Positions 3,958 to 60,566 of a stretch of 64,000 nucleotides of DNA are shown here, in pieces (positions within the stretch are counted from its first letter, which is position 1; each line of letters begins with the position of its first letter). A model generated the notes under the pieces. The model was not told where the DNA came from. It did no database searches and saw nothing but the letters and a program-made list of their open reading frames with translations. Source of the DNA: a virus (taxonomy: Duplodnaviria > Caudoviricetes); IMG/VR virus record IMGVR_UViG_3300028591_000071. One strand, 5' to 3'. The translations under genes were made by a program, and so were the position numbers.

Positions 3958-6711
3958 TTATGCGTTCTGCGCACCTTGTGGACCCTGAATACCGTCAGGA
4001 CCCTGAGGTCCCTGAGGGCCGTCATTACCATCGACCCCGTTTTCGCCGGCTACGCCCTGAGCACCCTGTGCACCGTCACTGTATTCGAACCCTGCAACAA
4101 TGCCGTCGGTTGTGATGACGTAAACCGTATTTCTTCCGTTTGCCGAATTAGGCGCTGAATAAATGCTCTCAATTCCTGTACCTTGAGGGCCCTGGACACC
4201 GAAGGTCATACCGCTTTCACCGTTTTCACCCTGAGGGCCCTGAGAACCCTGAGGTCCCTGAGGACCATCATTACCGTCGACTCCGTTTTCACCGGCCGCA
4301 CCCTGTGCACCATCGGCTCCGGCAGGTCCCATAGGACCCTGAACACCGAGGGTCATACCACTTTCACCGTTTTCACCGGCTTCGCCCTGAGGGCCCTGTG
4401 CTCCATCAACACCTGTTAGTCCGTCAGGACCCTGAGGACCTTGAGGTCCGCTTTCGCCCGCTGTGCCCTGTGCTCCGTCAGCACCGGCAGGACCCATAGG
4501 ACCCTGAACGCCCTGTCCTGAGCCATTCATACCATCATTACCCTGAGGACCCTGAGCGCCATCTACTCCGTTAGGACCCATAGGACCCTGAACACCAGTA
4601 ACACCGCTAACCATTGAGCCTTCAAGTGCGGCAACCCTTGCTTCAAGGTCTGCAACCCTCTGAACAAGTCCAAGAAGTTCGCTTACCTTAACCCTGATTT
4701 CATATGATTCACCCTCTGCAAGGAATGCGTCGTACATCGTCTGAAGTTCTTCGTCTGACTTAGGAGTGTGCTTGCCATTGTAATTGGCCTTGAATGCAGC
4801 GAAATCAGCAACCTTCTCGGTATCTGCAACATTGTTTCCAAACGCATAAACAAATTCTGTGTCCTGGCCTGAACGGTCTCCGTTCTTGGAAATCTTCTGC
4901 TCGAAGACAACTGAATTTGCATCTGTTGTCAAAGTGTTGGTTGAGAGAAGGATGTCGTCCATCTTGTGGTCAACATCATCATATGTCCAAACAGTCTCAA
5001 TCTTCTTTCCTGCGAACTTAATCTTACTGTCTGTTTCAAGGTTGATGTTAAGCTCGTTAGGAGTCCACAGTGTGGTCTTAGCCCAAATGTTGGTCTTTTC
5101 CCATCCTGATACCAAGTTGCCGTCTTCGTCGTAAACCGCTCCTGCTACCTGATTCTCATAGTATTCAATTTCTTCTGCAGATAATGTTGCAGGGTCTAAG
5201 TTTGCCTTCTTTGTAATCGGCTTTGTTTCGCCGTATTTTATTGATACATTCTTAGTACCCTTGTAAAGATACTTTGTTGGGTCCTCATAGAATGATTCTT
5301 CGCCGGCGCCCATTGCAACGATTGTATAACTACTTACAGAGCCTGTTGTTATATCACACTTGGTGTTATAAACAATTGTTCCTTCTGCGGCTGCTGTCTC
5401 TCCATCTGCTAAAACGGTGTTTACTGAAGCCTTGTAATAGACCTTATCCTTATCATTGTAGAAAGACTCGTTAACATAGTTGACAACTCTATCACCCTTT
5501 ATGTGCGGTTCACCAAATTCGTCGACGGTCGTCGTTTCTTTCGGATTGGTTGCTTCCCATGTATATTTACCGGTTACATCAACTGCGAAATTACCTTTGC
5601 TCTTTCCAAGTTTCACATATTGAAGACCATCAGGAAGAGCGTCAATGTAATGCTTATCAAGAACCCACTGTTCTGATGCAAGCCCCGTAGTATCGATATG
5701 CATGTCAGTCATTGCTGATGCTACAACATCTTCAACCTCATCCCTCGTTACGAATACGCTTGTGTCGATGCCTTCTCCGCTAAGAGCAGCCTTTGCAACT
5801 GCTGCATTAACAGTGTCCTCAAGATTCTTGCACTTATTAGCAGCGTCAAGAATTTCGTTCCAACTTGCAGAAGGGGTAGTAGCGTTGATGACATCCTTGA
5901 AATCGTCTGACTGTGTTGGATAATCAATCTTTCCGGTTGATGTCACTGCAGGCGTGTTCCTTGTAACGCCATAGACCTTCGCATCACCCTTGAAACGGTA
6001 GTCTCCCGTGTAAAGTGAAGTGTGAAGGTTGTTGAATGTACCGAACTCAAGACCCTTACCTCCTTCCTTGCAGTATGCTGCGGTTGCACCGATTTCGCTT
6101 GTCCTGTCACTTTCGAACTTAATCTTATTTTCCTTGCCATTGCTGTCGGTTCCTGCAACCTGAAGGGCAATTCCACCGTGGTCATAGCAACGGAAGTCCA
6201 TTGCACGGGCCTTCATCTTAAGATAAACAGGACCTGTCGTACCAACGACCTCTCCGCCGTTCCACTTGTCGTTCCTTACCTTGATGTCGATTGAATCGGC
6301 ATCGAATTCTGTTGTGTTGCATTTCTGATTATCAAGCGTCAATTCGGCTGCATTAACCTTAAGTCCGACAACGCGTGTTGCCTTTGGCTGTGCGCCGTTA
6401 CATACCTTGAATGTGAATTCAGTTGCATCAGCACCATGCTGCTCACAGTCGAACTGTACAGCCTCCGGCTTTCCATTCTCATCAATACCAGGCTTAATCT
6501 GAACAGCCTGTGCAGCAACGAGATTCAACTTCTCGCCACCTGCAACAGCGGCATTGACTTCGAAGTTGTTAGATGCATTTACATAGATTCCCTTGAGGGT
6601 GGCCAAAGAATTGACCATCCCGCTTGTTATTTCGGTTCCATTGACATATTTTGCGTCAATGTAATGTGGGGTTCCACTGATTAAGAACCCTTTAATTGCG
6701 TCTGCTGCCAT
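3958..6711 (-). CDS. Collagen-like fibre/structural protein (917 aa)
   Basis: Long ORF; coiled-coil segment VQRVADLEARVAALE followed by about 200 aa of G-X-Y (mostly GPQ/GAQ/GVQ) repeats at the C-terminus. Confidence 0.8.
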   Translation of the reverse strand: MAADAIKGFLISGTPHYIDAKYVNGTEITSGMVNSLATLKGIYVNASNNFEVNAAVAGGEKLNLVAAQAVQIKPGIDENGKPEAVQFDCEQHGADATEFTFKVCNGAQPKATRVVGLKVNAAELTLDNQKCNTTEFDADSIDIKVRNDKWNGGEVVGTTGPVYLKMKARAMDFRCYDHGGIALQVAGTDSNGKENKIKFESDRTSEIGATAAYCKEGGKGLEFGTFNNLHTSLYTGDYRFKGDAKVYGVTRNTPAVTSTGKIDYPTQSDDFKDVINATTPSASWNEILDAANKCKNLEDTVNAAVAKAALSGEGIDTSVFVTRDEVEDVVASAMTDMHIDTTGLASEQWVLDKHYIDALPDGLQYVKLGKSKGNFAVDVTGKYTWEATNPKETTTVDEFGEPHIKGDRVVNYVNESFYNDKDKVYYKASVNTVLADGETAAAEGTIVYNTKCDITTGSVSSYTIVAMGAGEESFYEDPTKYLYKGTKNVSIKYGETKPITKKANLDPATLSAEEIEYYENQVAGAVYDEDGNLVSGWEKTNIWAKTTLWTPNELNINLETDSKIKFAGKKIETVWTYDDVDHKMDDILLSTNTLTTDANSVVFEQKISKNGDRSGQDTEFVYAFGNNVADTEKVADFAAFKANYNGKHTPKSDEELQTMYDAFLAEGESYEIRVKVSELLGLVQRVADLEARVAALEGSMVSGVTGVQGPMGPNGVDGAQGPQGNDGMNGSGQGVQGPMGPAGADGAQGTAGESGPQGPQGPDGLTGVDGAQGPQGEAGENGESGMTLGVQGPMGPAGADGAQGAAGENGVDGNDGPQGPQGSQGPQGENGESGMTFGVQGPQGTGIESIYSAPNSANGRNTVYVITTDGIVAGFEYSDGAQGAQGVAGENGVDGNDGPQGPQGPDGIQGPQGAQNA
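3961..4610 (-). repeat. Collagen G-X-Q triplet repeats with internally duplicated blocks
   Basis: The GENGVDGNDGPQGPQG and GENGESGMTxGVQGP blocks each occur twice; the DNA copies differ mainly at synonymous positions (e.g. ~4001-4050 vs ~4247-4296). Confidence 0.9.
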
Positions 6712-6734
6712 AATGTTATATTGTTTTTTTCTTA

Positions 6735-7685
6735 TTATGCTATTATAAATCCGTTTTCGTTCACGGAGAAATCATTCAGGTTGATAAATCCATCGAGTTC
6801 TTCAATCGATTCTATCACCACATTATTGTCCTCATCAAGAAGTATGCTCCTATTCGTAGGTATTATCGGCGTGATTGAATCAAGGTCAATGAATCCGTCA
6901 ACAAGAGGCGCATTGAGTGTTATAAACCCATCATTTTCTTCAATATTCAAGAACGAAATCATGTTCCCGCTCAATGTATAAACCGTTCCGCCTGATTCCG
7001 GTTCCGTTTCTCCTTCGTATATGCAATAATATATGTCGTCTGAGTATTGGACCATCTTTCCGTCGATGATTACCGACCCGCTTGCAAGCAGTTCGTCGTA
7101 CTGCGCCCTTGTCAAGAACTGATGGTCTCCGCTTCTCCTTACATTGCTTATCTGCTCGTCTATGTATTCCCTTAGGGTAACTAACTCTTCTTCATTGTTT
7201 GTTGTTGCCGCACTTATCTCAACGATATCGTTTGCCATTTTCGCAGCCCCTGTGGTATCATTGATAATCCATTCCGCTATTTCCCTGAGAGTGTCGAACC
7301 TCGTATCAGCCGAGTCAATCACCTTAACCACCTCAAGTGATGCAATTTCCCTTATATGCTCATCGGTAACCGCTTCCGGCGTGGATGCACTTATGATGTT
7401 TATCCTCTCATTCAGGAACTGTTCAACCGCATTTACATATTCAACGGTCTGTGCCGATGTAAGATAATTCTCTCGTAAAAAATCCTTTATTTCATCGGGG
7501 GTCGTGCTTCCCGAAATGGCAACGCTGCTTATCTTAACGACTTCACCCCTCGTATTTATGAGATAAATTGCTTCAAAACCCGGCTCGTTGGAAATAATTA
7601 TCTCACCGGTACTTACGAACTTATCTCTTGTTATCTGAGAAGAGTTATTATAATGTTTGTTTAATACTACTCTACCTGAACTCAT
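6735..7685 (-). CDS. Tail-fibre-associated protein (316 aa)
   Basis: Motifs FDTLREIAEWIIND and FLTRAQYDEL...DDIYYCIYE resemble those of phage fibre/upper-fibre proteins; C-terminal DGFI repeats; six S[GA]xT motifs. Confidence 0.65.
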   Translation of the reverse strand: MSSGRVVLNKHYNNSSQITRDKFVSTGEIIISNEPGFEAIYLINTRGEVVKISSVAISGSTTPDEIKDFLRENYLTSAQTVEYVNAVEQFLNERINIISASTPEAVTDEHIREIASLEVVKVIDSADTRFDTLREIAEWIINDTTGAAKMANDIVEISAATTNNEEELVTLREYIDEQISNVRRSGDHQFLTRAQYDELLASGSVIIDGKMVQYSDDIYYCIYEGETEPESGGTVYTLSGNMISFLNIEENDGFITLNAPLVDGFIDLDSITPIIPTNRSILLDEDNNVVIESIEELDGFINLNDFSVNENGFIIA

Positions 7686-7843: not shown

Positions 7844-10558
7844 TTATAGCCCATTGCTGAACGTATACGAGAAGATAGCCGTTGACGGCATCATCTGTTC
7901 GACATACTTAAGGACCACATTTTCTATATATGTCTTGTATTCTTCACTACTTCCTGTAACGAAATCAATATTGATGTTCTTTAAATTTATAACGGAAAGT
8001 GCGGCACTCTCATCAAACTGTCCTTTCTTTTCAGGTGAAACAAATTCAGGATAACCCCACTTCCCCGTATTCTCATCGTCCTTATCACCCGGCGTCTCAT
8101 CCGTATTGTCACACTTCATAAACGAGTCTTTTCCATTTTCAAAATAGAAACACTTCACATCTGAAGACACAACATTAACGTCGAATCCTATACTTGTTAT
8201 CGCACTAAGGATATCCGCTTCTTCTTCAATGTCAAGCCTTGAGAACAGTCCGTGTTCAACCTCGTGTTTAAAGAGTGTATTATAATGGTCGACATAACTG
8301 CTTCCATCGTCATAACTTCCATATCCCACGTGTGGATTATTGCCGATGAATGTGGTCTTTATAGTTTCCATATAGAGAACTCGCTCGCCGTCGCACGTTA
8401 TGTTACCGCTTCCGTCAAATTCTTCAGTAAAGACGTTTCGCCATCCATAACAATCAAATATGTCATTGCTTACATACCCGATGTTCGTGGACAATTCCTC
8501 GGTCTTCAGTATGAAATAATGTGAGAAACCGCTAAAGCCGTCGGTAATCTTCGCACTGTCTTCTGCATTTGCCACATATTGGTCTTCTATACCTGTAATG
8601 TCTTCAACATAGCATACGCAGTTCTCGAACAGATTATCCGTCGTCAATCCGGTCAATTCATATAGGTTTGCCGCATATTTCATATATTGCAGCGTTTCCC
8701 CATAGAGCCCTATGAAATCGCCGTTTATCTTTTCTATGGTGGTCATCGCGCTTACAAGATGCTTGGTGCTCTTATCCTTCATTCCTTCCCATCCACCAAA
8801 TTGTTGGAAATAAAGCCCCGAACCGTAGACGGCATTCTTATCATACCAAGGTATAATGTATTTGTCTCCAGGTTCGCCACCCTGAGGACCTTGTGGCCCC
8901 TGTGGTCCTTCGGGCTCTTCGGTAGGAGGAGTTACTTCCGTTATCGGCCACTCAGCGAGAACATCGTCCCCATAGTAATAATTGTCATAATAAGGGAGAC
9001 AGGTCTTGAATTCATAAGATTTAGGGAAACGATTCGCTATTCCGAACTGTTCCGTTATCGTGTAATCGCTCGCACTCATTCCGAACATACCGAGAATAAC
9101 TTCTATACCCCGCTTTGTTCCCTTCAGCGACTGTATATAATCTGAATTCAATATCATTCTCCTTATAAAACCGATATTGGAATCAGCAGCCGTATATCCC
9201 GAATATGTAGTACCTGAATATATGACGTCACTGATGACGGTCCTGTCAACCGTAGGCCCGACATTATATGCGTCCCACCCATCATTTTCAAGGCAATCGG
9301 TAAGGAAATAATCAGGAGTGTTGCTCTTTTCGTTATATGTAATTGCATTTGTCGTCTTTATGTTATTCGCATATCTCCTTATGTCGTCAAACTGCCGCCC
9401 ATATAACTCTATTGCACCCCTAATCTTGGTATCATCTATATCGGAAAGGTCCTGTTCATCGCCATCTTCCTGCCTGAAAAATGTCCAGTCAAGGTTTTTG
9501 ATTGATTGGTGGGTGAGCATCCTCCAAAGATTCCCGCAATCATATTCGTCATAATATTCCGCGAGATGTATGAGTGCCTTCAAATATCCTTCCAGCTTAG
9601 GACCGCTTGTGTGCGGCATCGGATAATTCTGCATCGTAGATGCACTTGTTGAAGGCCACGTATATCTCTTCATCGTATAATAGTGACCCTCGCCGTCAAA
9701 ATAAGGCGTTTCAAGTTCGCACGTGAATTGCGGCTTTGAATCAAGGGTTAAGAGAATCTTCTCGAAATCGTCAAGTTCATCATACTTCTCCTTAAAATAT
9801 TCAGGCTTTGGCTCAAGGAAAACACCCTTAGGTCCCGTCACTATATATTCACCACTCCTAATTCTGTAAGTAATAAACGTAGTCCTGTTAATGGTTGTCG
9901 TTGCCACCTTGTTTGCACAGCCAGTATCTCCTGAACCAGCTGTTATGGCGAAACTTGTCACGGGGCTGCCGTTCAGCATATACTTGTCATAACTCAAAGA
10001 CAGCACCTTGAACGGGTCATTGGTTCCTTCAACTGATTCCGCAGGGGTCCATATATCGAGCCCAAAATAATTTTCAACGACCGTTACCCCTGATGGTAAA
10101 GATGGTAAATCAGGTATTAGCTTCGAATAATCTTCATATGCATCGCACAAACCACCCGGATATCTCAATATGATATCCCTGACTGTCGCTTTCATCAACT
10201 CCGTTGCTGAGCCATAATAAGCAAAATCCCTGACCGAAGAATAATCCGGCTTAAGGACTATCTTCGATTCATCCGTCGTAACACCCGAGCAATCCCCCTC
10301 TGTCCAATATTCAACGCTCGCGCCTGACGGCGGAATCCAAATCCCCGAAAAATGTTTCTTTTTCCCGTTTATATCACTTCTTACCCTGAACTTGAAGTTT
10401 GAATCGGAAAACATTATCACATCCTCATCGTACACACCATCTTCGGGAACGATGGTCATATGGTCGTTCTCAAAAATTGTACCGTCGGCTGTGGAAGAAT
10501 GCTTCTTCCTGTAAACAAAGTCAGTCTTACTCTTTATGTATTGGGTCCTTCTGCTCAT
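7844..10558 (-). CDS. Baseplate/tail structural protein (904 aa)
   Basis: Long ORF in the baseplate operon. SLKGTKRGIEVILGMFG and terminal YVEQMMPSTAIF are typical of baseplate-wedge/tail-I-like regions; short GPQGPQGPQG insert. Confidence 0.6.
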   Translation of the reverse strand: MSRRTQYIKSKTDFVYRKKHSSTADGTIFENDHMTIVPEDGVYDEDVIMFSDSNFKFRVRSDINGKKKHFSGIWIPPSGASVEYWTEGDCSGVTTDESKIVLKPDYSSVRDFAYYGSATELMKATVRDIILRYPGGLCDAYEDYSKLIPDLPSLPSGVTVVENYFGLDIWTPAESVEGTNDPFKVLSLSYDKYMLNGSPVTSFAITAGSGDTGCANKVATTTINRTTFITYRIRSGEYIVTGPKGVFLEPKPEYFKEKYDELDDFEKILLTLDSKPQFTCELETPYFDGEGHYYTMKRYTWPSTSASTMQNYPMPHTSGPKLEGYLKALIHLAEYYDEYDCGNLWRMLTHQSIKNLDWTFFRQEDGDEQDLSDIDDTKIRGAIELYGRQFDDIRRYANNIKTTNAITYNEKSNTPDYFLTDCLENDGWDAYNVGPTVDRTVISDVIYSGTTYSGYTAADSNIGFIRRMILNSDYIQSLKGTKRGIEVILGMFGMSASDYTITEQFGIANRFPKSYEFKTCLPYYDNYYYGDDVLAEWPITEVTPPTEEPEGPQGPQGPQGGEPGDKYIIPWYDKNAVYGSGLYFQQFGGWEGMKDKSTKHLVSAMTTIEKINGDFIGLYGETLQYMKYAANLYELTGLTTDNLFENCVCYVEDITGIEDQYVANAEDSAKITDGFSGFSHYFILKTEELSTNIGYVSNDIFDCYGWRNVFTEEFDGSGNITCDGERVLYMETIKTTFIGNNPHVGYGSYDDGSSYVDHYNTLFKHEVEHGLFSRLDIEEEADILSAITSIGFDVNVVSSDVKCFYFENGKDSFMKCDNTDETPGDKDDENTGKWGYPEFVSPEKKGQFDESAALSVINLKNINIDFVTGSSEEYKTYIENVVLKYVEQMMPSTAIFSYTFSNGL

Positions 10559-10559: not shown

Positions 10560-11420
10560 TTAGTCGTCCATTACATTGTCATATGTCTGATTAGCATCGA
10601 TTGTCTCCCTCTTTCTCTTAATATCGTATAGAGGGACACCGAGCCTGCTCTTCTTCGTATAATAGTCGTGTTGCTGATAAATTTCGTTCTCTTCGTTGTA
10701 AGTGGTGATGATTCCGTGGTCCCTGTCCCTTGCCTGGTCACCCTCGAGCATATAGGTTATGGTATCTGCATCGTGTTCGACCAACTCCACTTCAATGAGT
10801 TTTGGAGTGAAGAGTGTATTGGTGAGGATAATGTCCGCACCGGGCGTTCCTATATTCGGTCTTGCGTTCTGAGCAAAACTTGGTGATGATGACGGGGATA
10901 CGGTACAGAAAACAAGAGAACTTGATGTGTCCTCAAGGTTATATCTCGTGGCTTTTGGATAACCATCACCAATGGAAACCGTTACGGGCGCACACCTGTT
11001 GCAGGATTTAATCATCCTGATTTCGCCGGTATCAACCAACTCCATCCTATACCCGACAAGGTCACTTATGCCGGCAAGCGAATCTATGTTAAGGACAACA
11101 CCCCTCACGTCAGGATATGAAGACAATACACTTACATCAACTATTTTTGCCTTAATCTCTTTCGGTCTGATAAAGATGGTATAAATACCCTTCCTGTTGA
11201 ACTCGTCCAATGGGAGTCTGAGGTCATAAACACCATCTATCTGTTCCTTGTCGTCATCAGTGACGGCAGGAATGAGGCATTCGGCAGGGTCAAGAGGCTT
11301 ATATCCCTGAAAATTTTCGTCATCCGTACCTCTCGTCGGCCTATAGTGATATAAAACTTCTGCATCCCTATATGGTTCTATCTTGGCGGGCCTTATTGAC
11401 CCGAAAACACCACTAATCAT
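10560..11420 (-). CDS. Structural protein, probably baseplate (286 aa)
   Basis: Long ORF tightly packed (1-5 nt gaps) in the structural operon. Confidence 0.55.
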   Translation of the reverse strand: MISGVFGSIRPAKIEPYRDAEVLYHYRPTRGTDDENFQGYKPLDPAECLIPAVTDDDKEQIDGVYDLRLPLDEFNRKGIYTIFIRPKEIKAKIVDVSVLSSYPDVRGVVLNIDSLAGISDLVGYRMELVDTGEIRMIKSCNRCAPVTVSIGDGYPKATRYNLEDTSSSLVFCTVSPSSSPSFAQNARPNIGTPGADIILTNTLFTPKLIEVELVEHDADTITYMLEGDQARDRDHGIITTYNEENEIYQQHDYYTKKSRLGVPLYDIKRKRETIDANQTYDNVMDD

Positions 11421-11425: not shown

Positions 11426-13789
11426 TTATAAATTATAATAGTTATTACCATAATTCTCAAGGTCTTCCATAGAATTGCATTCTGAAAGTTTGAAATGCCT
11501 CTCAAATGCAGCTGCGGAACCCCTGTCCATCGTCACGCTAAACCTACTCTTCGTATCTCCCATAAATAGCGGGACATCTTCTCTTGTAAACACCGGAGCA
11601 TCAAACATATCATCGTCATTGAACATCGTTCCTATCTCCATCCCGATGATTGTCGCAAGGTTTGCCATTCTATATGTGCCATACTCTTCGCTATACACTT
11701 CCTTCTTCGTCGATTCGGTATCAATCTTGTCGTAATAGATTACTATTCCGTCCCTTCCGTCTATCCTTATCTTTTTCTTCATTCCGTGTACATAAGGATA
11801 AGTCTCCTGATACTGTATTCCGGTATTTTCCACATATGTGTATTGTCCGTCGCTACCCTGTAGTTTTGCACCAATCGTATAAGTTATCGTCCACGAACTG
11901 TCAACTATTTCAATGCTGTTCACGTAATCCCCGACATACAAGTTATCATCAATCTCATATATGTTATGGGCAGAACCCTCGGTATACGGTATCCTGAATG
12001 TCTGAAGCCCTTTGCTTCCCATCGTGACCGGCTCACCCTGTCCCGAAAACATATACCCATTGTCTCTCTTGACCATAAAGTAATATGTATCGCCGTTTGA
12101 CGGGGTTAAAACCATATTCTTGAAGCATTCAAGAATGGTAACCGTCCTGTATTTGTTCTTTCCCTTCGTTGCCTCAGCACTTTCACCATCCGCACATTTG
12201 ATTGCGGCGGCTTCCGATTCGGTTAATCTTGTGCATTCCCACCATTTATAGTTATAGACAGTATAGCCCGTCGTCGTTGTCTTTATTCCGTGCCCATGGG
12301 AATCATTCACTTCTTCTTCCGACGTAGCGTTTGGCATATTAACCGGTGTTACACTCTGAAGGAGAACCCTGTCAACATCTGTTCTTGTCAGGGCAGGTAC
12401 TTCTTCCGTGCCCTCTAATGTACCCCTTTCTACATAATCGCTATTATCATAAACAATTACATATGAAATACCTTCGCCCGTAACACTGCTGTTGTCCTCA
12501 TAATACGTGCACTTCAACAGGTTTGTCTTTTTGCCTTCCTCAGGAAAATCAACCCACGCCCCAACCAATCCTTCAACGGTCTCCGCATCATCATCTATAA
12601 CATAATACAACTTTGATTCAACCGTTGCTGAAATTGCTGAAAACACCGGAACAACCGTACCGTTCTGTGTATAAGCACTCTTTGATTCTATGTATGATTC
12701 ATAAACGGTCTCATAAGAGCATTCCTGTTCAATTGATATAGGGAAGGAAATATATGGAGCGACAAACGTCATTCCCATTCCGTTATCCGGAACACTTGGT
12801 ATTGATTGCGGAAATTCCAATTCGTTAGCCCTCTTCTTGAGAAAATCATACATTGCATCTCCGCCGTGTTCGTTCCATTCCTTAAGGCCCTGCTCACTCT
12901 TGTTGCCCTTTCTCTTCTCAAACCAATCTATATGTTTCTGTATGTTCGTATAAAACACAAAATCAGGTACATATATTCCACTTATATTATACGGAACCTC
13001 AATCTTGCCTATGACATACTTGTCAACAAACTCCATGAACTGATACAGTCCAACCTCGTTGTCACTCCCTTCGAACATCTCGAGACACCACGTCTTGCCG
13101 GTATGTACGTACTTGTTTTCTTCAATGTCCGTATATTCCGTTTCAGCACTGAACCACCAATTCTCTATCTTTTTCAACTCATCGTAATCATCAACTATGA
13201 CATAGAACTTTCCCCGCTCTATATCTTCCTCCGTGGTTGTCATGCCGTAGATGTGCCTGTCTTTTGCATAATTACGCGAATCAACGGGTATGAATTCATA
13301 TCTTGCCCTTTTCAAGCCCGAATAATCTTCTTCCGATATCAGGTCGGTAAGGCAAAGGGCACTGGTCTTGTTCTCAATAACAACCGTTTCGCCGCAGCCG
13401 CTCCCGTATATACCGACAACGTTTCTCCCGCCAACAAAGGTCGGCACCTCGATTTTTTCGCCATCCATTTCTTCAATATGTACGGTCTCGTCAACTATAT
13501 TCGTTTCATTGACCACACACTTTGTCCTGATGCCCGATTCTATTATCCTGTTGGCTTCATTGTACCTTCTTATTATGTCGCAATACCTTACCCTGTCAAC
13601 GACCTTTTCCTTCTCCGTCTTTTTTTCAAGTATCCCGATGTCCGAAACAAGCATACCCCAATTCCCGTTCTCATTCTCATTCGACACAAGATACATTTCC
13701 GGGTCAGAATTGAACGGAATATATGGCAAGACCCCATTGGTCCTGCTCTTGCTCTTCTCTATGCTTATCTTTTTCCTAACTGGCTCCAT
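11426..13789 (-). CDS. Structural protein (~787 aa; likely start MEPVRKK at 13789 rather than 13822)
   Basis: Long ORF; C-terminal MDRGSAAAFERHFKLSECNSMEDLENYGNNYYNL; the start overlaps the upstream stop. Confidence 0.6.
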   Translation of the reverse strand: MEPVRKKISIEKSKSRTNGVLPYIPFNSDPEMYLVSNENENGNWGMLVSDIGILEKKTEKEKVVDRVRYCDIIRRYNEANRIIESGIRTKCVVNETNIVDETVHIEEMDGEKIEVPTFVGGRNVVGIYGSGCGETVVIENKTSALCLTDLISEEDYSGLKRARYEFIPVDSRNYAKDRHIYGMTTTEEDIERGKFYVIVDDYDELKKIENWWFSAETEYTDIEENKYVHTGKTWCLEMFEGSDNEVGLYQFMEFVDKYVIGKIEVPYNISGIYVPDFVFYTNIQKHIDWFEKRKGNKSEQGLKEWNEHGGDAMYDFLKKRANELEFPQSIPSVPDNGMGMTFVAPYISFPISIEQECSYETVYESYIESKSAYTQNGTVVPVFSAISATVESKLYYVIDDDAETVEGLVGAWVDFPEEGKKTNLLKCTYYEDNSSVTGEGISYVIVYDNSDYVERGTLEGTEEVPALTRTDVDRVLLQSVTPVNMPNATSEEEVNDSHGHGIKTTTTGYTVYNYKWWECTRLTESEAAAIKCADGESAEATKGKNKYRTVTILECFKNMVLTPSNGDTYYFMVKRDNGYMFSGQGEPVTMGSKGLQTFRIPYTEGSAHNIYEIDDNLYVGDYVNSIEIVDSSWTITYTIGAKLQGSDGQYTYVENTGIQYQETYPYVHGMKKKIRIDGRDGIVIYYDKIDTESTKKEVYSEEYGTYRMANLATIIGMEIGTMFNDDDMFDAPVFTREDVPLFMGDTKSRFSVTMDRGSAAAFERHFKLSECNSMEDLENYGNNYYNL

Positions 13790-15935
13790 CGTTATATTCA
13801 AGTTTCGGTTCGAACAGGACAAGTCTTATGTTCCCGTCTTCATTTATCGCATCAGGTATGGTGTAAACATACTTTTCATCAATGTACTGCACTCTTACGG
13901 GGATGTAAAGATTTTGCATGAAATTAGCTACCGTGAGTGCACTATAACCGTTGTCATCATGCGGCCAAATTATCATTGGTATTGTTTTTCCGTTACCGGC
14001 GTGATTGAATTCAACCTTCATATAAATAGTTCTGTAGGTATTTCCACTATCTACCTTTTCAGCATCATCCTTGAACAGATAAATATTAAATCCCTCGCTT
14101 GATGTCATCATATTGTATTCATTTTCAATCACTATCTCAGTGTCAAGCCTTGCTGATGCTGAGTTGTTGTCAAAGAACACAATAGGGACTGACAACTCCT
14201 TCTTCCCGAGCAGGGATGCCCTAAGAAGAAATTGTTTCATGAACTTTCCGTACAATGCGGTGGTGTCAAAAAACGATGTTGAATAATAAAGCAGTTTCTG
14301 TTCCACCGGGTCTTTGGATGTGTAATAAGAGAACCTTAAGAACGACTTGGACACCTTTGACTTCCTGTACATTATATCGCTGTCCGTGAAATCAAGCACT
14401 CCTATCATATCGGAAACCTTCCCGCTCGCTTCAACAAACTCTTTCATCTTTTGCGGGCTGAACGTCGCTTCCTCATAATCCATCCCGTTCCACCATATGG
14501 TCGCCGCCGAATCCGGGTTTATATTCCACCCATCGAGATATGGGCTGTAATCTAAATCAAAGCCTATTGCCTTCGCCGCTTCCTGTGATTCCTTGTCTAT
14601 CTCTTCACGCTTCCTGAAATGGAAATCAAACGTTATTGACGTTGCGGGTTTCAATCCATCTTCACCGTAATCAATGTGCGGTGAATATTTAACCTTTTCC
14701 ATGTCAATGACATCAGGAATGGCCGCATCCATTATCCGTTGGGCATAAACCAAATCTGATTCGTCATTTACAACGGTTCCAATCATATCTTCGGAAGAAA
14801 ACGCAAGGAACGGGACTTTCCAATATCCCGAATATCTGGTCAACTCCACGTGGCTTATCCCCGGTCTCTCATATACCACCTTTCGTGGTTGGTTTTCATT
14901 ATTTACTTCAAGGATTGGCCACCAAGGGTCTCCCCACATCGTACATCGTTTCCTCAAGTCCTCCGAATACATGAAAGTATAGTAGTATTCATTATAAACA
15001 GGCTCGAAATACGATGCGTGTTCTATAAGATATATCGCAGCATCATAATTGTCTTCTATGACTTCTCCCGATGGATATTTGCCTATCGTGGACGCTGACG
15101 TGAAGAGAATTGCGTTCCTACTGAATGATGACGGACAATATGTGTATGTATATACCTTGAAATCATAAGGATAACCGCTTATGTCGTACTTTCCGCAAGT
15201 ATCATATCCACTATATGTCAAAGTGTCGGCAGACGTAACCGTCATCGGAATACCCGTGAATGGAATCGATACGCCGTCAATGTATCCTATCCTGTTTCCG
15301 TTCATATCAAAGGCACACAACGAAAATCCGCTCAAATAATCATTTGCCGCCGCAATATCCTGTTGGTATATGCCGTGCGGTTCGTTGAACCTTATCAGGA
15401 AATGTTCGTATTCAACATCATCTTCCGTCTTCCCGCTGACGTGCATGACCGAGTCGTCAATTTTAAGGCCATCGTCTTCCATTACAATCAGATAACCCAT
15501 CTTAGGGTCAAAATACCCTTTCCCAACGGACATTGATGTGGCAGACATCGCTTCGTCGGTATCTCCGCTAAATGTAAGAAGGGTATGAATGTCGGCACTT
15601 GTGGATGCAGAAATTATCTTAAGGTCGTAATTCCTATCCCTGAGATATAGTTTTCTCTTTGGCGGAAGCGTTGTATACATGGCGTCCCATATTCCGTTCT
15701 CGTCTTCAAATTCAGTCTTTTCAAGAATCTGAACAGGCGACGTTGCCGTTTCATAAACGCCGTCATCCCCATAGACAATCCTCCTGAAATACAACATCTC
15801 CCCGATATTCATCTTCCAATTGATATTGTTTGTGAACACAATAAAGAGCCTGTCGCCTTCCTCAGCCATCATATAGACATCGGTCGGATAATATCCGTAT
15901 ATCTTCTTCCTTGAGTTTACCTTTATCGCATCCAT
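13776..15935 (-). CDS. Structural protein (~719 aa; likely start MDAIKV, TAATG overlap)
   Basis: Long ORF; KSFLRFSYY and IYMKVEFNHAGNG motifs; seven S[GA]xT motifs. Confidence 0.6.
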   Translation of the reverse strand: MDAIKVNSRKKIYGYYPTDVYMMAEEGDRLFIVFTNNINWKMNIGEMLYFRRIVYGDDGVYETATSPVQILEKTEFEDENGIWDAMYTTLPPKRKLYLRDRNYDLKIISASTSADIHTLLTFSGDTDEAMSATSMSVGKGYFDPKMGYLIVMEDDGLKIDDSVMHVSGKTEDDVEYEHFLIRFNEPHGIYQQDIAAANDYLSGFSLCAFDMNGNRIGYIDGVSIPFTGIPMTVTSADTLTYSGYDTCGKYDISGYPYDFKVYTYTYCPSSFSRNAILFTSASTIGKYPSGEVIEDNYDAAIYLIEHASYFEPVYNEYYYTFMYSEDLRKRCTMWGDPWWPILEVNNENQPRKVVYERPGISHVELTRYSGYWKVPFLAFSSEDMIGTVVNDESDLVYAQRIMDAAIPDVIDMEKVKYSPHIDYGEDGLKPATSITFDFHFRKREEIDKESQEAAKAIGFDLDYSPYLDGWNINPDSAATIWWNGMDYEEATFSPQKMKEFVEASGKVSDMIGVLDFTDSDIMYRKSKVSKSFLRFSYYTSKDPVEQKLLYYSTSFFDTTALYGKFMKQFLLRASLLGKKELSVPIVFFDNNSASARLDTEIVIENEYNMMTSSEGFNIYLFKDDAEKVDSGNTYRTIYMKVEFNHAGNGKTIPMIIWPHDDNGYSALTVANFMQNLYIPVRVQYIDEKYVYTIPDAINEDGNIRLVLFEPKLEYNDGAS

Positions 15936-44022: not shown

Positions 44023-44088
44023 CGTAAAGAATATACAAAAATAGATTGAAAATAGCAACCCTATTGGATATATTAAAATAAAAAATCA

Positions 44089-45450: not shown

Positions 45451-45453
45451 ATC

Positions 45454-46254
45454 ATGAACAACATAGACATATTCATCTTCTCGCAAGGAATTCCCAAGGT
45501 GTACCCGAAATCCGATGAATACAAACTTGTTTCAGTCGGGGAAATCGAGGAGCCTTGTGAAATTCAAAAGATAGATGTAGGAAAATATGACGACCCGCTC
45601 CTTAAAATGGAACACGCATACAGCGAAGGAGCCCGCATCCACGCCTTATGGAAAAACTACCCGTTGAAAAAGTATGTTGGAACCGCACATTACCGGCGTT
45701 ACTTCGACTTCTTTGATAAGGTTCCCGATATGGACACAATATTCTCGACACACGATGCAATATATCAGTCATTCGACATAGGATGGCCATCAATACGGGA
45801 TAACTATGCGGGATGCCATAACATAGACGACCTTAATCTATGTGTTGAAATCATTAAAGAAAAATGGTCGGATTACGCGGGTGCAGCAGACTATGTGATG
45901 GGAAGCAAATATTTCGTTCCGTGCAACATTTTCGTCCTCACAAGGGAGATGTTCTGCAAATGGTGCGAATTCGTATTCGGCGTTTTGGATGAATATAATG
46001 AAAGGATGGGGTTCAAAACCGACCTTGACGTGTGTAATCACGTAGTAAACAATATGGATAGATATGTGGAGGGGAAAGGTGGACCGCCAAACAACAACAC
46101 GTCGTATCAAAGCCGTATACACGCCTTCCTTATGGAGCGAATATCGTCTATCTTCTTCAAACAGAACATAAAGAATCCGTATTACAGCAACATTCTGCTT
46201 ACGGAAACGCATTTTGACTTCGAAAAAACCTATTTTTACCAATATGAGAAATAA
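45454..46254 (+). CDS. DUF4422-like glycosyltransferase (start MNNIDIF at 45454)
   Basis: YSEGARIHALWKN..VGTAHYRRYF..CNIFV..WCEFVFGVL..RIHAFLMER; paralogous to the C-terminal domain of the 1298-aa protein. Confidence 0.8.
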   Translation: MNNIDIFIFSQGIPKVYPKSDEYKLVSVGEIEEPCEIQKIDVGKYDDPLLKMEHAYSEGARIHALWKNYPLKKYVGTAHYRRYFDFFDKVPDMDTIFSTHDAIYQSFDIGWPSIRDNYAGCHNIDDLNLCVEIIKEKWSDYAGAADYVMGSKYFVPCNIFVLTREMFCKWCEFVFGVLDEYNERMGFKTDLDVCNHVVNNMDRYVEGKGGPPNNNTSYQSRIHAFLMERISSIFFKQNIKNPYYSNILLTETHFDFEKTYFYQYEK

Positions 46255-47479: not shown

Positions 47480-47482
47480 TAA

Positions 47483-49960: not shown

Positions 49961-49993
49961 AAAAAATCGGAGGCTAAAAAGTCTCCGATTTTG
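49961..49993. terminator. Bidirectional terminator between convergent genes
   Basis: AAAATCGGAG...CTCCGATTTT inverted repeat with A/T tracts on both sides. Confidence 0.7.
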
Positions 49994-50789
49994 TTTTTTC
50001 ATATTCATTGTCAAACTCTTCCATGCTCATTTCCGAGCGGCTGCACCATTCTTCAAGTAGTTGGTCAAACTGAGAATACGGGTCCCATCCCGTTGTGGCG
50101 GCAACATAACAGGTAGTGGCCACAAGTTCGTAACTTATCGTGTTTCCCGGAAAATTCTCAGAGAAAAACCGCCCAATCATCCTTGGCTTCTCAATATTCC
50201 TCGTCTTCATCACATCCTTCAGCGTCGATACATTGACCCAAAAGATTGAACCGAGATAATAGTACCTGTTAAACGGAAGAACCTCGTTCGGCCTCCCGTC
50301 AGTATACCTGCAGTCAGTCATAGGAAAGCCATAGAAAACCTTCGTGTTCTGAACCAACCAATAATCAATCTCCCATTCTCTTGAAAGAGCGTAATAATAA
50401 TTGGAAAATACCCATCTTGCCGTGTTTTCCGTATTGTTACTCTCCCCGCGAAGATGCGAGAAGAATACCAACTTATCGTTGTTGGATTCATTGTCGAGAA
50501 TTTCCTCCTTGAAGTTCTTCGATTCCCTCAGCGATGTGTTTTTCTCAACCACGAACTCAACATTTTCCGTGTAACCAAGCGACATGATGAAATCTACATA
50601 TTCCGATATCAGTTTTGTATTCCCTATAAGGTCTTCCTTGACGGAAAGGATGAATTTTGCCTCATCAAACACGCTCCTCCACCTTTTAATGCAAGCAAAA
50701 TGTACCTTAGCGACAAGAACCTCGCTGCATCGCTGCTGCGGGGTCCTGTCGTCACCAATATAGATGAAAAATATTAATTTTTTACGCAT
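49974..50789 (-). CDS. Putative glycosyltransferase, unnamed family, paralogue 4 (start MRKKLIFF at 50789)
   Basis: KVHFACI..RESKNFK..FFSHLRG..WVFSNYYYAL..YLGSIFW..RFFSENFP; the start overlaps the nrdD stop. Confidence 0.55.
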   Translation of the reverse strand: MRKKLIFFIYIGDDRTPQQRCSEVLVAKVHFACIKRWRSVFDEAKFILSVKEDLIGNTKLISEYVDFIMSLGYTENVEFVVEKNTSLRESKNFKEEILDNESNNDKLVFFSHLRGESNNTENTARWVFSNYYYALSREWEIDYWLVQNTKVFYGFPMTDCRYTDGRPNEVLPFNRYYYLGSIFWVNVSTLKDVMKTRNIEKPRMIGRFFSENFPGNTISYELVATTCYVAATTGWDPYSQFDQLLEEWCSRSEMSMEEFDNEYEKTKSETF

Positions 50790-52959
50790 AAAATCTCTTG
50801 TTGGCCTCAATCTGCCTTGGCTCTGCGAAAGATGAAATCCTCTTTAAATATCCGATAACCCTCGTCAGGTAATCAAGATTCGTACTTCCACAGTGAGGGC
50901 ACTTGTCAAGCGTATGCTTACTGATGAAGCCACAATCATTGCAAACCGTATTCTTAACATTGAATGTAAAATAATTGCAACCATTCTTTGCTGCAACCTT
51001 CATTAACTGACGATATTGTGTCTGAGATAGATGTTCAGCCAAATTTTCATGGCACGCTGAGCCCCCATCCAAATATTGAACAAACTCTTTTCCGTGAAGT
51101 TTCATTTTCTCTATCACGCTTATGGTCTCGTCTTCAGGGTTATAGAAGTATGAACTATAAAGATTCCTGTTAGGGCTTACCCAATAGCCATCCTTCTGGT
51201 CCCACTTGTAATTCTTTGCAGCAAGATTCTCGGCGGGAACAAATTCAGTATTGAACATGCAATCCCTCGTCTTGTCCGCCTTGTTTGCAATGTTGATTGT
51301 TTCAAGGATGTTGTTTACGAACTCCTTGTATTCGTCATTAACGCTAACCTTGATTCCAAGGAACTCTGCCGCATCGGTAATTCCGTTTACACCAACGGTA
51401 AGATATTGCTTCCTCATGTCAATGAACCCTGCACGATATACATCAAGCATATTCGCATTCAAGAAGTCCTTTATTGTCTCGTTGAACGCCGTCTGATACT
51501 TGTGCACACGCTCTGTAAGTTCCCTGACCTCATTCCTTATGAACTCATAAAGTTCGTCCTTATCATACTTAAGTCCCTGTTCGGGAATGTTCTCGCCAGC
51601 GATGAGGGTCTGTCCCTTCGTGCGGAAATACTTTATCGTGGCATCCTGAACAAGTCTCGGAAGGTTCATCGTCATGACGGACTTTGACCCCGTTGCAACG
51701 GATGCTGTTCCCATTGAATATTGGTGTGTGGTATGATTATGCTCCGCATCCTGATTGTCCTTCAGTGAATTTCTTAGTCTGCAGCAGCTACTCAATGAGT
51801 CGGGGCTATCCGAAAGATAGCAGAAGAAACTGTGACCTTCGCTCCACATCTCGGCGGTGAAGTCCGCATATTCCTTATCCATAAAATCATCAGCACCATC
51901 TGTAAGAAGAGCCATCGTTTCAACGGGGAAAGTGAATGTGTATGTAAGCCTCTCATTGTTGAACCACTTCATGAACCTCTTCTGAAGCCATGAAAGAGTT
52001 TCCCACTTAGGGGCAGTTCCATCAGGGAACCTGAAATCTCCGAATACGCCTTCAAAGTAATATTTGTCGAAATAGCCAACATTCCAGAAGACCGTCTGAT
52101 AGCCACGGTTGCCTGCCGGCATGTTCATCGAATGAACAACCTGTTGAAACGCATTGTCAATTACATCTCCAATAGTCCTCTTCTTTCTGCTTAGGTCAAC
52201 AACCTCATCAATGTGATTGATATAGTCCTCGCCATAATCCTTGCGGATGAAATAATCCATATACATAAGGAATTCAGGTGTTGCAACCGCACCCATAAAT
52301 TGAGAAGACACTGAATACACTAAGTTAATGAATTCTCCGCAGAAAGACTTAAGGTCTGTTGGAGCAATCGACTCTCCGCCGAGCCCCTTTAGTCCATTTT
52401 CAAGGAACGGATACATCGTGATTGCTACACAATATGGATATCCTGGCGTTCCGCTTTCATCATGCTTATACAGGATGTGACTTTCAAGGTCTGCAATATA
52501 TTGGTCAGCCAATTTTTTTGAATACATCTTGCGAATCTTATCACAAAGGATGTAACGATTCTGTTTGATGTTGTTTTCCTTGTAGAGTTCCTGTCCCAAT
52601 GTAACGATGTTCTTGTTGCTGACATTAGCATTGGAATCAAACTTTGAGCCGGTTGCCGCATTGGAAGCATTGATGTACTCTTTGATAAAGTCCCTCTTCT
52701 TGTTAAGGTCTTTCCTGTCGTCGTTGTTCTCAATATACGCCTTTGCAACTTTTTTGTTGATGCTCATCAGCGCATTTTCTACCTGTCTCCTGATTTCCGA
52801 ACTACTAATGTTTTCGTAAAGATAAAGACTATTGACGACATTTTCCAACATCTGTTCATCGCAATCTTCGTTCATCGCCTCGAATGCTTTACATATTCCC
52901 CTCTTAACTTTCTCACTTTCAAACTCCTCGATGGAGCCATCACTTTTTCTTACATTCAT
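50782..52959 (-). CDS. nrdD: Anaerobic (class III) ribonucleoside-triphosphate reductase with ATP cone
   Basis: N-terminal ATP cone VRKSDGSIEEF, YPYCV, SSCCRL, TEFVPAE, C-terminal CNDCG..CPHCG and glycyl-radical RVIGYL. Confidence 0.95.
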   Translation of the reverse strand: MNVRKSDGSIEEFESEKVKRGICKAFEAMNEDCDEQMLENVVNSLYLYENISSSEIRRQVENALMSINKKVAKAYIENNDDRKDLNKKRDFIKEYINASNAATGSKFDSNANVSNKNIVTLGQELYKENNIKQNRYILCDKIRKMYSKKLADQYIADLESHILYKHDESGTPGYPYCVAITMYPFLENGLKGLGGESIAPTDLKSFCGEFINLVYSVSSQFMGAVATPEFLMYMDYFIRKDYGEDYINHIDEVVDLSRKKRTIGDVIDNAFQQVVHSMNMPAGNRGYQTVFWNVGYFDKYYFEGVFGDFRFPDGTAPKWETLSWLQKRFMKWFNNERLTYTFTFPVETMALLTDGADDFMDKEYADFTAEMWSEGHSFFCYLSDSPDSLSSCCRLRNSLKDNQDAEHNHTTHQYSMGTASVATGSKSVMTMNLPRLVQDATIKYFRTKGQTLIAGENIPEQGLKYDKDELYEFIRNEVRELTERVHKYQTAFNETIKDFLNANMLDVYRAGFIDMRKQYLTVGVNGITDAAEFLGIKVSVNDEYKEFVNNILETINIANKADKTRDCMFNTEFVPAENLAAKNYKWDQKDGYWVSPNRNLYSSYFYNPEDETISVIEKMKLHGKEFVQYLDGGSACHENLAEHLSQTQYRQLMKVAAKNGCNYFTFNVKNTVCNDCGFISKHTLDKCPHCGSTNLDYLTRVIGYLKRISSFAEPRQIEANKRFYA

Positions 52960-59020: not shown

Positions 59021-59024
59021 TCTA

Positions 59025-60566
59025 CTAGTGTACAGTGATATTCAATCTTATTGCTGCCCTGTCTCTATTGTTGTTAAAATGGTTTGTGCCGTCAATTGGT
59101 GGTGTTTCCAAATAATCTCCTGGCCTACCTATCCCTTCCGTAGTTACGGTTGTTACATAATTAAATGTTTGAATAGTATTGCCGGTTAGATATCCCCCAT
59201 CAACACTCATTTCATCAAATTCAATTTCATCTTGTCCTACAGAAACTTCAAGGATATCTCCGTCAACTAAAGTTATGGTTGTGTAAGGCCCATAATTATT
59301 AACAAAGTTTCCTCTTAATTCTACCTCTTCATTTGTTCTTTTGTTTTTTACAAAAATTGTATGATGTGAATTTAGTACACCAAATTGGTAGTCGGAATAT
59401 GTAAACAAAATCAACTCATATTCAAGTCCTACCTGAGCAATTGATGTTACTATGTTGTTGTTACTATCAAATGTCACGCTGCTGGTCATTAGGTAGTAAG
59501 GGCCGCTAATTCTCTCCCATTCTACCCTGTATGGAATTTCGCTATCTGAAGTTTTATTAAATTGTCCAGAAGACTGTACGTTAGTATATCCAGATAATAG
59601 GGTTTCACGCCTATTAGCCTTAGCCGTGTTGTTATTCCCATATACAACAGCAGCAAACGTTGAAGCGGTTTCAGCGCTTAAACCATTAATTGTTTCAATT
59701 CTATCATTCCATGTTATCGCCGTTGGTATTACATCCAAATACACATAATATGAGGTTTCTTCATAAATGCATGCTTCGATATTATATTGTGACATTCCAC
59801 TGAAATTCGTATTAACAATATCCGTCGGAGATACCCAATCGTCAACATAGAAATCTGACACTTCATCTTCAATAATTTTTTTCCATATCAAACTGCCCCT
59901 TTTTAAGCAAAACCTGCCATATTCTTCTGCTACGCCACGTACCGTACATGCATAATCCGGTTGGTCCACTTCTATCGTACGGTCAGCTAGACTAATCGAA
60001 TCAACCTCGCCCATTGCTTTCACTTGCTCCATCGTGTAATCATCCGAAAAAGTTATACTACTTGTAGCATCCTGCGCTATACTATAGTCTTCATCAGGCC
60101 ATGGATTCATCCCTAAATATATATAAACATCCACGCTTGACCCACCTGTGAACGTGATAGTATATGTTGTGGTGGCACTTATATGTATTGGCACCGGGGT
60201 TTCTACACCACCCTTAATCTCTACCCCACCGAAGAGAATGTAAGGATTAAGGGCTATCGAATCCTGAACTTTTATTCCCGCATATTCCCCATTGTTTGAT
60301 GTAGGGTCGTCATATTCAGTATCCATTGCTGTGTCATCACCCGGATGCCAAGTAAATCCTTCTAATAACCCACCTTCCCTGTTTGGAACCTGATAAATCT
60401 CATCCGTATATACCGCATTGTTTATCTCGGTCCTCAACGCAGGGGAGTATGGAGTATACGCCGTTGATGATATTCCATAACTCGGAGTATAAGATGAAAA
60501 GACATACTTGTAAAGCATGTCGAGATTAATGACGCTATTTTCTATTAATGAACTATTTGCAAACAT
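59025..60566 (-). CDS. Hypothetical acidic beta-rich protein, probably virion-associated (513 aa)
   Basis: Long ORF with CTATTTAT upstream; Thr/Ser/Tyr-rich; S[GA]xT motifs (SATT, SAET, SGYT). Confidence 0.55.
   Translation of the reverse strand: MFANSSLIENSVINLDMLYKYVFSSYTPSYGISSTAYTPYSPALRTEINNAVYTDEIYQVPNREGGLLEGFTWHPGDDTAMDTEYDDPTSNNGEYAGIKVQDSIALNPYILFGGVEIKGGVETPVPIHISATTTYTITFTGGSSVDVYIYLGMNPWPDEDYSIAQDATSSITFSDDYTMEQVKAMGEVDSISLADRTIEVDQPDYACTVRGVAEEYGRFCLKRGSLIWKKIIEDEVSDFYVDDWVSPTDIVNTNFSGMSQYNIEACIYEETSYYVYLDVIPTAITWNDRIETINGLSAETASTFAAVVYGNNNTAKANRRETLLSGYTNVQSSGQFNKTSDSEIPYRVEWERISGPYYLMTSSVTFDSNNNIVTSIAQVGLEYELILFTYSDYQFGVLNSHHTIFVKNKRTNEEVELRGNFVNNYGPYTTITLVDGDILEVSVGQDEIEFDEMSVDGGYLTGNTIQTFNYVTTVTTEGIGRPGDYLETPPIDGTNHFNNNRDRAAIRLNITVH

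Follow-up and report, generated by a model that had tools for sequence, protein, structure and literature searches.

Does the tail of an uncultured phage carry a short, defined site for glycosylation, and which enzymes would use such a site? This question is raised by 64,000 nucleotides of the IMG/VR virus record IMGVR_UViG_3300028591_000071 (Duplodnaviria; Caudoviricetes), hereafter the window, in which a four-residue motif, S-[G/A]-x-T, recurs in the tail, baseplate and fibre proteins encoded beside a block of glycosyltransferase (GT) genes. A first, sequence-only reading of the window had proposed that the motif is a phage-specific O-glycosylation sequon and that the GT island builds a glycan coat on the tail and baseplate. 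Virion glycosylation is documented for a few mycobacteriophages and giant eukaryotic viruses. To our knowledge, no sequon is known for any phage, and the GTs of jumbo phages have mostly been guessed to modify DNA or the host surface. Our literature searches found no account of the motif, nor of glycosylated fibres in phages of this kind. Here we report that the enrichment of S[GA]xT is real, highly significant and repeated across distant phages, and that it acts at the protein level and directionally. Among relatives, the motif appears to track a virus-specific GT of the GT-B fold better than it tracks the island of the window.

In nine non-repetitive structural proteins of the window, S[GA]xT occurs 37 times against 4.6 expected from their own composition (z = 15, ~8-fold), a concentration in tail, baseplate and fibre proteins that is stronger than the sequence-only reading had claimed. 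The enrichment survived composition-preserving shuffles, both global and local: when residues were shuffled within blocks of 10-50 amino acids (aa), which keeps the local Ser/Thr/Gly richness, none of 2000 shuffles reached 37 (mean ~5, maximum 15). Since the motif was first picked by eye, we scanned every a-b-x-c, a-x-b-c and a-b-c pattern without bias. SAxT ranked first (20 vs 1.7, p = 4e-15) and SGxT second (17 vs 2.9, p = 1e-8), both ahead of all other patterns by many orders of magnitude, so that the motif is not a post hoc choice. The 25 other proteins of the window held 3 sites against 3.6 expected and gave no comparable pattern outlier; recounting found no site in NrdD, DnaB, the RecA-like protein or UDP-glucose 6-dehydrogenase (Ugd) and one in the 1298-aa GT, the same figures as had been obtained by hand, and none in the baseplate J protein. 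The hand counts for the structural proteins were essentially right as well. Those for the 316-, 904-, 905-, 917-, 513- and 798-aa proteins held (Table 1), while the 722-aa protein has 8 sites instead of 7 and the 2215-aa protein 7 instead of 3-5.

The signal depends on the order and identity of the two hydroxyl residues. Whereas S[GA]xT is enriched 8.0-fold, the corresponding values are 2.6-fold for T[GA]xT, 1.7-fold for S[GA]xS and 1.5-fold for T[GA]xS, and the reversed motif Tx[GA]S occurs 8 times against 4.6 expected. The Ser codons at the sites are both AGY and TCN; therefore, the signal lies in the protein, and a DNA-level motif was rejected. The N-x-S/T sequon is not enriched in the structural proteins, nor is D-(S/T)-(A/I/L/V/M/T), the sequon of Bacteroidota (26 vs 27.3 in shuffles), from which the motif had been said to be distinct. 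Preferences at the flanks, compiled over 468 non-redundant sites, are mild: Y/F/L/V are favoured and Arg is depleted at position -1, and Pro and Arg are depleted at x. The contexts of the sites in the structural proteins of the window are unique, and the 316-, 904-, 722- and 905-aa proteins match no recognised repeat family in Pfam or PHROG (the Pfam scan did not cover the 2215-aa protein). The motif stands inside a periodic repeat only at two sites of the 917-aa collagen protein, where half of the four sites are 'GE-SGMT' linkers separating collagen runs, and in the PTR (PF12789) fibres of two relatives, G006 and G007.

Comparison of orthologues separates the motif from the fold that carries it. 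Full-length orthologues in the relative G001, 41-49% identical to the window proteins, have 1, 2 and 0 sites where the 904-, 722- and 905-aa proteins have 8, 8 and 3 (identity is 44% for the 904-aa and 49% for the 905-aa orthologue). In the 904-aa protein, the sites of the window stand where G001 has NQVN, PQSM, VGYN and similar peptides between conserved flanks. Differences limited to the motif include YWTEGDC-SGVT against YWTEADC-NQVN, TYPY-SADT-DMVDT against TYPF-LKDY-DLVDT, and NG-Y-SALT against NGNY-VSLT (window against G001 in each pair). A full-library search with the 722-aa protein gave 728 homologues, 64 of which were aligned with it (65 sequences). These 64 hold 192 sites against 19 expected, about 3 per protein, and yet the eight window sites are each found in just 1-9 of the 65 sequences in the alignment, and three of them lie in lineage-specific insertions. 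An AlphaFold2 (AF2) model of this protein (predicted local distance difference test score, pLDDT, 87) places the sites at loops, helix N-termini and strand ends, with no single structural context; a Foldseek search of the model against the PDB gave no fold match. In the 2215-aa protein, all seven sites lie past residue 855, in the C-terminal 60% only. Among its homologues, those from the island-bearing clade show the enrichment, whereas those from the island-free clade stay at expectation. Because orthologues of the same fold lack the sites, and because positions turn over while the count is kept, the motif is not demanded by the fold; it behaves like a site read by some factor rather than a folding requirement.

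With the wedge protein (baseplate J) as an anchor, we collected 75 IMG/VR contigs, many of 150-390 kb, and analysed seven whole records. In relatives at 51-69% wedge identity, and only in this clade, a homologue of the 1298-aa GT adjoins the wedge gene, and the enrichment is seen in the giant protein and the proteins next to it. In the clade at 42-44% identity, NrdD, NrdG and the wedge gene are contiguous, so that the island is an insertion, and enrichment is absent. The complete genomes G003 (55 vs 43) and G004 (45 vs 39) lack both the island and the enrichment, as had been foreseen for island-free relatives, and contain no protein with p < 1e-3. The tie between the motif and the 23-kb island nevertheless found no support in the form proposed. 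Genome-wide counts are 112 vs 57 in G001 (~2-fold; five proteins with p < 1e-3), 85 vs 45 in G008 (~2-fold), and 133 vs 38 in G006 and 237 vs 66 in G007 (3.5-fold), where single proteins reach 36 vs 3.1 in G007. A proteome-wide pattern scan of G006 and G007 again placed SAxT/SGxT on top. BLAST searches of G006, G007 and G008 found no homologue of the 1298-aa GT or of the small proteins of the island. Judged from these genomes, the island is neither necessary for the motif, since G006-G008 are enriched without island homologues, nor sufficient, G004 having three GT-A genes and no enrichment. The 1298-aa GT was thus rejected as a necessary reader of the motif, and so was the presence of GT2, GT2_4, DUF4422 or GT92 genes as a predictor, because G004 has such genes and no enrichment. 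A general property of myovirus tail fibres was also rejected, because tail proteins of an outside set were at expectation: T4 (gp34-38, 5 vs 4.2), Flavobacterium phage immuto (15 vs 11.4), Microcystis phage Mel-JY01 (6 vs 6.8) and uncultured phage LR756508 (5 vs 3.9).

Which gene, then, varies with the motif? When the 325 open reading frames (ORFs) of G001 were compared with the other genomes, only two families occurred in all of G006, G007 and G008 but in neither G003 nor G004, namely a GT-B and PhoH. The GT-B is a GT4-like protein of ~410 aa with weak matches to Glyco_trans_1_4, Glyco_transf_4 and a PHROG glycosyltransferase, and its invariant blocks include PSDxxGVGxYR, DxDDxW and FNEVKSELK. 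The family is virus-specific, metagenomic and very large (1901 proteins at E <= 1e-100), and no close homologue was found in cultured phages. One member was present on 279 gut-metagenome contigs, adjoining a VWA-domain gene. In G008, the GT-B was found first and the enrichment was then seen genome-wide, with an enriched 1256-aa protein encoded directly beside the GT-B gene. The GT-B is present in all enriched and in none of the non-enriched genomes examined, a co-occurrence that comprises few independent contrasts.

Gene order in more distant phages points the same way. In four further diverse phages, the GT-B operon and a block of fibre genes stand back-to-back, and one fibre gene carries a Peptidase_S74 chaperone domain. 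In one of them (G012), the GT-B operon is transcribed divergently from five consecutive motif-rich tail-fibre genes (L276; 41/7.6, 12/1.5, 8/0.6, 12/1.8 and 7/0.6 sites/expected), and the fibre genes beside the GT-B of the other three are also enriched. The GT-B operons themselves hold 0 sites in three phages and 1 against ~1.3 expected in L277. Fibre genes are missing from the region around a GT-B-like gene in the 735-kb phage LR756501, which was uninformative on this point. On these comparisons, GT-B seems to track the motif better than the island does and would be a better candidate for a priming enzyme than any gene of the window.

The island itself limits what its enzymes are likely to act on. 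Its ORFs include no multi-transmembrane protein, with hydrophobic stretches only at two uncertain N-termini, and Pfam scans of the island detected no flippase, polymerase, polyprenyl-phosphate transferase or GtrA/B/C family. Such membrane components are the hallmark of loci for lipid-linked surface polysaccharides or serotype conversion. Thus, the acceptor should be soluble, and sugars on a lipid carrier are unlikely.

Our whole case rests on sequence statistics and comparative genomics, from which we infer a modification of the motif, its nature as a sugar, the enzymes that might be responsible and its purpose. The reading that we favour, at a probability of about 0.45, is that S-[G/A]-x-T is an O-glycosylation sequon on tail proteins served by soluble phage enzymes, with GT-B as the candidate primer and the island as an elaboration. 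Accordingly worded as a pathway, S-[G/A]-x-T, usually following a hydrophobic or aromatic residue, would be a short linear site that marks exposed tail-fibre and baseplate proteins for modification, and its Ser or Thr would be O-glycosylated in the host cytoplasm by soluble phage GTs, before or during tail assembly. The conserved virus-specific GT-B would carry out the priming step, and the GT-A enzymes of the window, together with Ugd and the short-chain dehydrogenase/reductase (SDR) enzyme, would form a lineage-specific kit for supplying UDP-glucuronate-derived sugars and extending the glycan. Either hydroxyl residue might be the acceptor, and the coat might serve for shielding or mucus binding, as the sequence-only reading had suggested. 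A very large jumbo-phage assemblage of worldwide distribution, from rumen, gut, freshwater and other metagenomes, may even share a core system of sequon-directed O-glycosylation, in which GT-B primes, GT-A islands diversify, and sites come and go like the glycan shields of animal viruses; this wider generalisation is possible but doubtful.

Could the pattern arise without any modification? A purely compositional origin, by which loops or repeats rich in Ser, Thr, Gly and Ala swell the count by chance, would suit the 1107-aa fibre and the collagen protein, whose compositions are biased and whose excess is weak. The seven sites counted by hand in the former are there, but they are marginal given its composition (7 vs 3.2, p = 0.045; local shuffle, p = 0.06). 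For the structural proteins as a whole, this origin has a negligible probability: global and local shuffles give ~5 sites against the 37 observed, the site contexts are unique, the signal repeats in independent genomes, and controls of the same composition (Tx[GA]S, T[GA]xS and S[GA]xS) stay near expectation. We rejected it on the shuffles and the controls. A structural preference deserves more attention, and we consider it unlikely. Hydrophobic-S-[G/A]-x-T would then be a strand-exit turn or a helix N-cap favoured by the fibre and baseplate folds of these phages, inherited and re-invented by module shuffling and free of covalent modification. The preference for Y/F/L/V at position -1 is what a buried strand end would show. 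In the family of the 316-aa protein (20 homologues), S77/T80 and S158 are >=90% conserved, and its sites lie in the gaps that separate predicted helices, at helix starts or ends (AF2 model of low confidence, pLDDT 57.6). In the PTR-type fibre repeats of G006 and G007, the motif is positionally conserved and periodic, like a structural element, in units such as 'LSAxTIYSGxTNLEDVI' and 'LSGATFTG', and these repeats supply part of the excess in the two genomes. The rest of the proteome in enriched phages shows no avoidance of the motif (G007, 43 vs 38), although a promiscuous cytoplasmic enzyme that recognised a sequon of four residues would be expected to bring such avoidance about. A turn or cap does not readily account for full-length orthologues of the same fold that lack sites, for positions that turn over while the count is kept, or for sites that stand in differing secondary structures of a single protein. 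Enrichment is shared by all of the non-homologous, non-repetitive proteins but is missing from the tail proteins of T4, immuto, Mel-JY01, LR756508 and G003/G004, and an 8-fold excess of S..T beside 1.5-fold for T..S is hard to explain by a turn preference.

The motif might also be a selected linear site with a use other than glycosylation, such as another Ser/Thr modification or docking during assembly or decoration, with the island GTs and GT-B acting on some other soluble target, for example phage DNA. All of the sequon-like properties fit any site-reading factor, and phage GTs are described as hypermodifying DNA with glycans in the work of Pyle et al. (2024) as cited in PMC12619734. The GT-B operon, moreover, includes a dUTPase and a GMP-reductase-like gene, and the enrichment neither requires the island nor is ensured by it. 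We regard this explanation as quite unlikely, because GT-B and PhoH are the only families that co-vary with the motif, with no kinase, acyltransferase or other Ser/Thr-modifying enzyme among them, and because motif-rich fibre genes adjoin GT-B in several lineages. Furthermore, the PF00303 homologue of G001 is a DHFR-ThyA fusion, so that no DNA acceptor pathway was seen there, and the window encodes no deoxynucleoside monophosphate hydroxymethylase or other DNA-acceptor enzyme. The thymidylate-synthase homologue was rejected as a hydroxymethylase on its score as a DHFR-thymidylate synthase (318 bits vs an equivalog cut-off of 108). PF00303 homologues occur in G001, G006 and G007, not in G003 or G004; that of G001 is a fused protein of 539 aa.

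Several observations weigh against sequon-directed glycosylation of the tail as we propose it, in addition to the conserved sites of the 316-aa family, the periodic PTR sites and the missing avoidance described above. The GT-B family is not encoded in the 64-kb window, and its link to the window motif comes through relatives. G003 and G004, the non-enriched relatives that were searched wholly, belong to a single clade; apart from the outgroups, the correlation with gene content thus depends on what is essentially one event of loss. GT-B also lies among genes of nucleotide metabolism (dUTPase, GMP-reductase-like) and could act on DNA. As for the island, its enzymes are absent from the most strongly enriched relatives, and G004 carries three GT-A genes and yet no enrichment.

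Known systems offer partial parallels to the glycosylation that we propose. In mycobacteriophages of the Che8 type, virion glycans are placed on C-terminal extensions of capsid and tail-tube subunits, according to Freeman et al. (2023) as cited in PMC12619734. The likeness is that the GTs of a phage would act in the cytoplasm on virion proteins of the same phage and that a glycan coat is proposed. The candidate sites here, however, are internal, follow a four-residue pattern and lie on fibre and baseplate proteins, the window having no capsid or tube genes, and the phage is an unrelated, jumbo, myovirus-like one. Chloroviruses and Mimivirus likewise have their own soluble GT-A and nucleotide-sugar enzymes, multidomain GTs among them, and modify non-canonical sites without host membrane machinery. 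The glycans of PBCV-1 are N-linked to Asn of its capsid protein (Vp54), whereas the present motif has no Asn, stands on tail proteins of a bacterial virus and is not accompanied by enrichment of N-x-S/T. General O-glycosylation in Bacteroidota resembles our proposal in that a short sequon directs Ser/Thr glycosylation across many unrelated proteins; it is periplasmic and lipid-linked, in contrast to an island that has no membrane component, and its sequon is not enriched here.

Closer in mechanism is the cytoplasmic O-glycosylation of surface filaments and autotransporters, namely the flagellin Maf/FlmG systems and AIDA-I/TibA heptosylation. There, soluble enzymes modify many Ser/Thr residues of a fibre-like substrate, folded or still folding, before export or assembly, at strand-loop junctions with hydrophobic residues nearby. 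We found no homology to those enzymes, the target here would be a phage tail, and we know of no strict four-residue sequon in those systems. The turnover of sites recalls influenza haemagglutinin and gp120 of human immunodeficiency virus, in which the number of sites is kept, positions shift among relatives, and sites lie on exposed distal parts. Those are host-made N-glycans on enveloped viruses, and the analogy is one of evolutionary pattern only.

If the proposed sequon is correct, it would be the first one defined for phage virions, and it would hold across uncultured jumbo phages that form a very large group. Virion glycosylation would become predictable from sequence, with substrates, a candidate priming enzyme and a target for mass spectrometry to hand. 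For phage therapy and gut ecology, a glycan coat on receptor-binding structures would affect antibody recognition, protease resistance, mucus adherence and host range. Even without a sugar, a strongly selected, fast-relocating tail motif shared across distant phages is unexplained biology.

Table 1. Positions of the features discussed, in window coordinates unless another contig is named; sites are S[GA]xT counts, given against the expected number
Feature	Position	Strand	Basis and sites
917-aa collagen-repeat tail fibre	3958..6711	-	Pfam Collagen and PHROG tail-fibre matches; 4 vs 0.84, p = 0.007
316-aa helical fibre-like protein	6735..7685	-	6 sites (58, 77, 99, 125, 158, 231) vs 0.23
904-aa putative baseplate/tail protein	7844..10558	-	8 vs 0.7
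286-aa conserved tail-module protein	10560..11420	-	0 vs 0.14; homologues in all clades
798-aa tail-module protein	11426..13822	-	2 vs 0.46, p = 0.08, not significant
722-aa tail-module protein	13776..15944	-	8 vs about 0.37-0.39
905-aa tail-module protein	15935..18652	-	3 vs 0.5, p = 0.011
2215-aa giant tail/baseplate protein	18649..25296	-	7 vs 1.46, p = 0.001
Baseplate J/wedge protein (T4 gp6-like)	25533..27401	-	Pfam Baseplate_J and PHROG baseplate wedge; 0 sites
1298-aa multidomain soluble GT (DUF5672 + GT92/GT2_4 + DUF4422)	27905..31801	-	Pfam; no transmembrane segment
270-aa GT92/GT2_4 glycosyltransferase	31798..32610	-	Pfam
333-aa SDR nucleotide-sugar epimerase/dehydratase	33509..34510	-	Pfam Epimerase; below every NCBIfam equivalog cut-off
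Two DUF8361-like paralogues (269, 258 aa)	34507..36100	-	Atlas neighbours are viral DUF8361 clusters; no Pfam match
Ugd	36097..37470	-	Three Pfam domains; NCBIfam NDP-sugar dehydrogenase, 442 bits
1107-aa Ser/Thr/Ala/Gly-rich repetitive fibre within the island	37502..40825	-	7 sites
NrdG	40966-41445		
Two GT2_4/GT92 glycosyltransferases (283, 290 aa)	41478..43192	-	Pfam
289-aa DUF8361-like paralogue	43189..44058	-	BLAST matches to the G002 paralogues that the 258-aa protein also matches
TnpB, IS605 family (OrfB_IS605 + Cas12f1-like TNB domain)	44104-45300	-	Between the minus- and plus-strand GT operons
GT operon: DUF4422 (274 aa), GT2 (421 aa), two-domain GT2_4 + GT2 (805 aa)	45430..49900	+	Pfam
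278-aa DUF8361-like paralogue	49974..50810	-	BLAST
NrdD	50782-52959		
513-aa Thr-rich protein amid replication genes	59025..60566	-	3 vs 0.51, p = 0.013
453-aa zinc-finger protein	60647-62008	-	DUF4379, DUF723 (treble-clef zinc finger) and CapR-homology domains
GT-B in G001	L087:506-1747	-	
GT-B operon in G012	L276:12134-18999	+	After five small proteins: dUTPase, IMPDH/GMP-reductase-like protein, Glyco_tranf_2_5 GT
Fused DHFR-thymidylate synthase in G001	G001:336918-338534 (L092:16918-18534)		539 aa

The positions of all features are collected in Table 1. The island (27.9-50.8 kb) is a block of ~23 kb upstream of the wedge gene that also contains NrdG. About 11 GT-like ORFs had been counted in the window; seven have GT-type Pfam domains, ~10 domains in total (DUF5672, GT92/GT2_4, DUF4422 and GT2), and the other four are DUF8361-like paralogues. 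Pfam bore out both the reported Ugd, a UDP-glucose 6-dehydrogenase that NCBIfam also supports, and the reported epimerase, which belongs to the SDR epimerases/dehydratases. The second domain of the 805-aa GT has its best NCBIfam match, a weak one, to the SunS-family peptide glycosyltransferase (48.6 bits, cut-off 350). The DUF8361-like family, with four paralogues of 258-289 aa in the window and five in G002, has no Pfam-A match and always stands amid GT genes; its members may be an undescribed family of sugar-modifying enzymes. NrdG and NrdD lie ~9 kb apart with GT genes and TnpB between them (relatives: L022-L030, L057 and L070). Because NrdD, NrdG and baseplate J are contiguous in the 42-44% clade, the sugar island seems to be made up of two insertions that flank nrdG. 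Homologues of TnpB are present in G001, G003 and G004, elsewhere in those genomes.

Nearly all genes of the window are on the minus strand. From the wedge gene downstream, the tail/baseplate operon encodes proteins of 2215, 905, 722, 798, 286, 904 and 316 aa, followed by the 917-aa collagen fibre. Very long collagen-type fibres with lineage-specific triplet composition are encoded in G001 (L076-L094) and G002 (L166-L181), and collagen-like triplets are in huge excess there, GxTG/TGxT in G001 (318-392 vs ~50) and GQG/QGxQ/QYQ in G002. Beyond the island are NrdD, a DnaB-like helicase, a 5'-3' exonuclease and a RecA-like protein; the 513-aa Thr-rich protein has no match in Pfam or PHROG. The full contig of the window is 306 kb long, and a nearly identical contig, JAEEGL016279931.1, is 156 kb long; close relatives abound in samples from rumen and gut.

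The gene of the 453-aa zinc-finger protein stands between the RecA-like gene and the 513-aa gene. Its homologues occupy varied positions in relatives and adjoin baseplate J in L013, L016 and L017, as a mobile nuclease-like gene would. CPxC and CPxH are the most over-represented patterns in the non-structural proteins of G003, G004, G006 and the window (CPxC, 32 vs 1.5 in G003; CPxH, 5 vs 0.15 in the window), and this excess of C-P-x-C and C-P-x-H hints at a family of small proteins with zinc-binding or redox roles.

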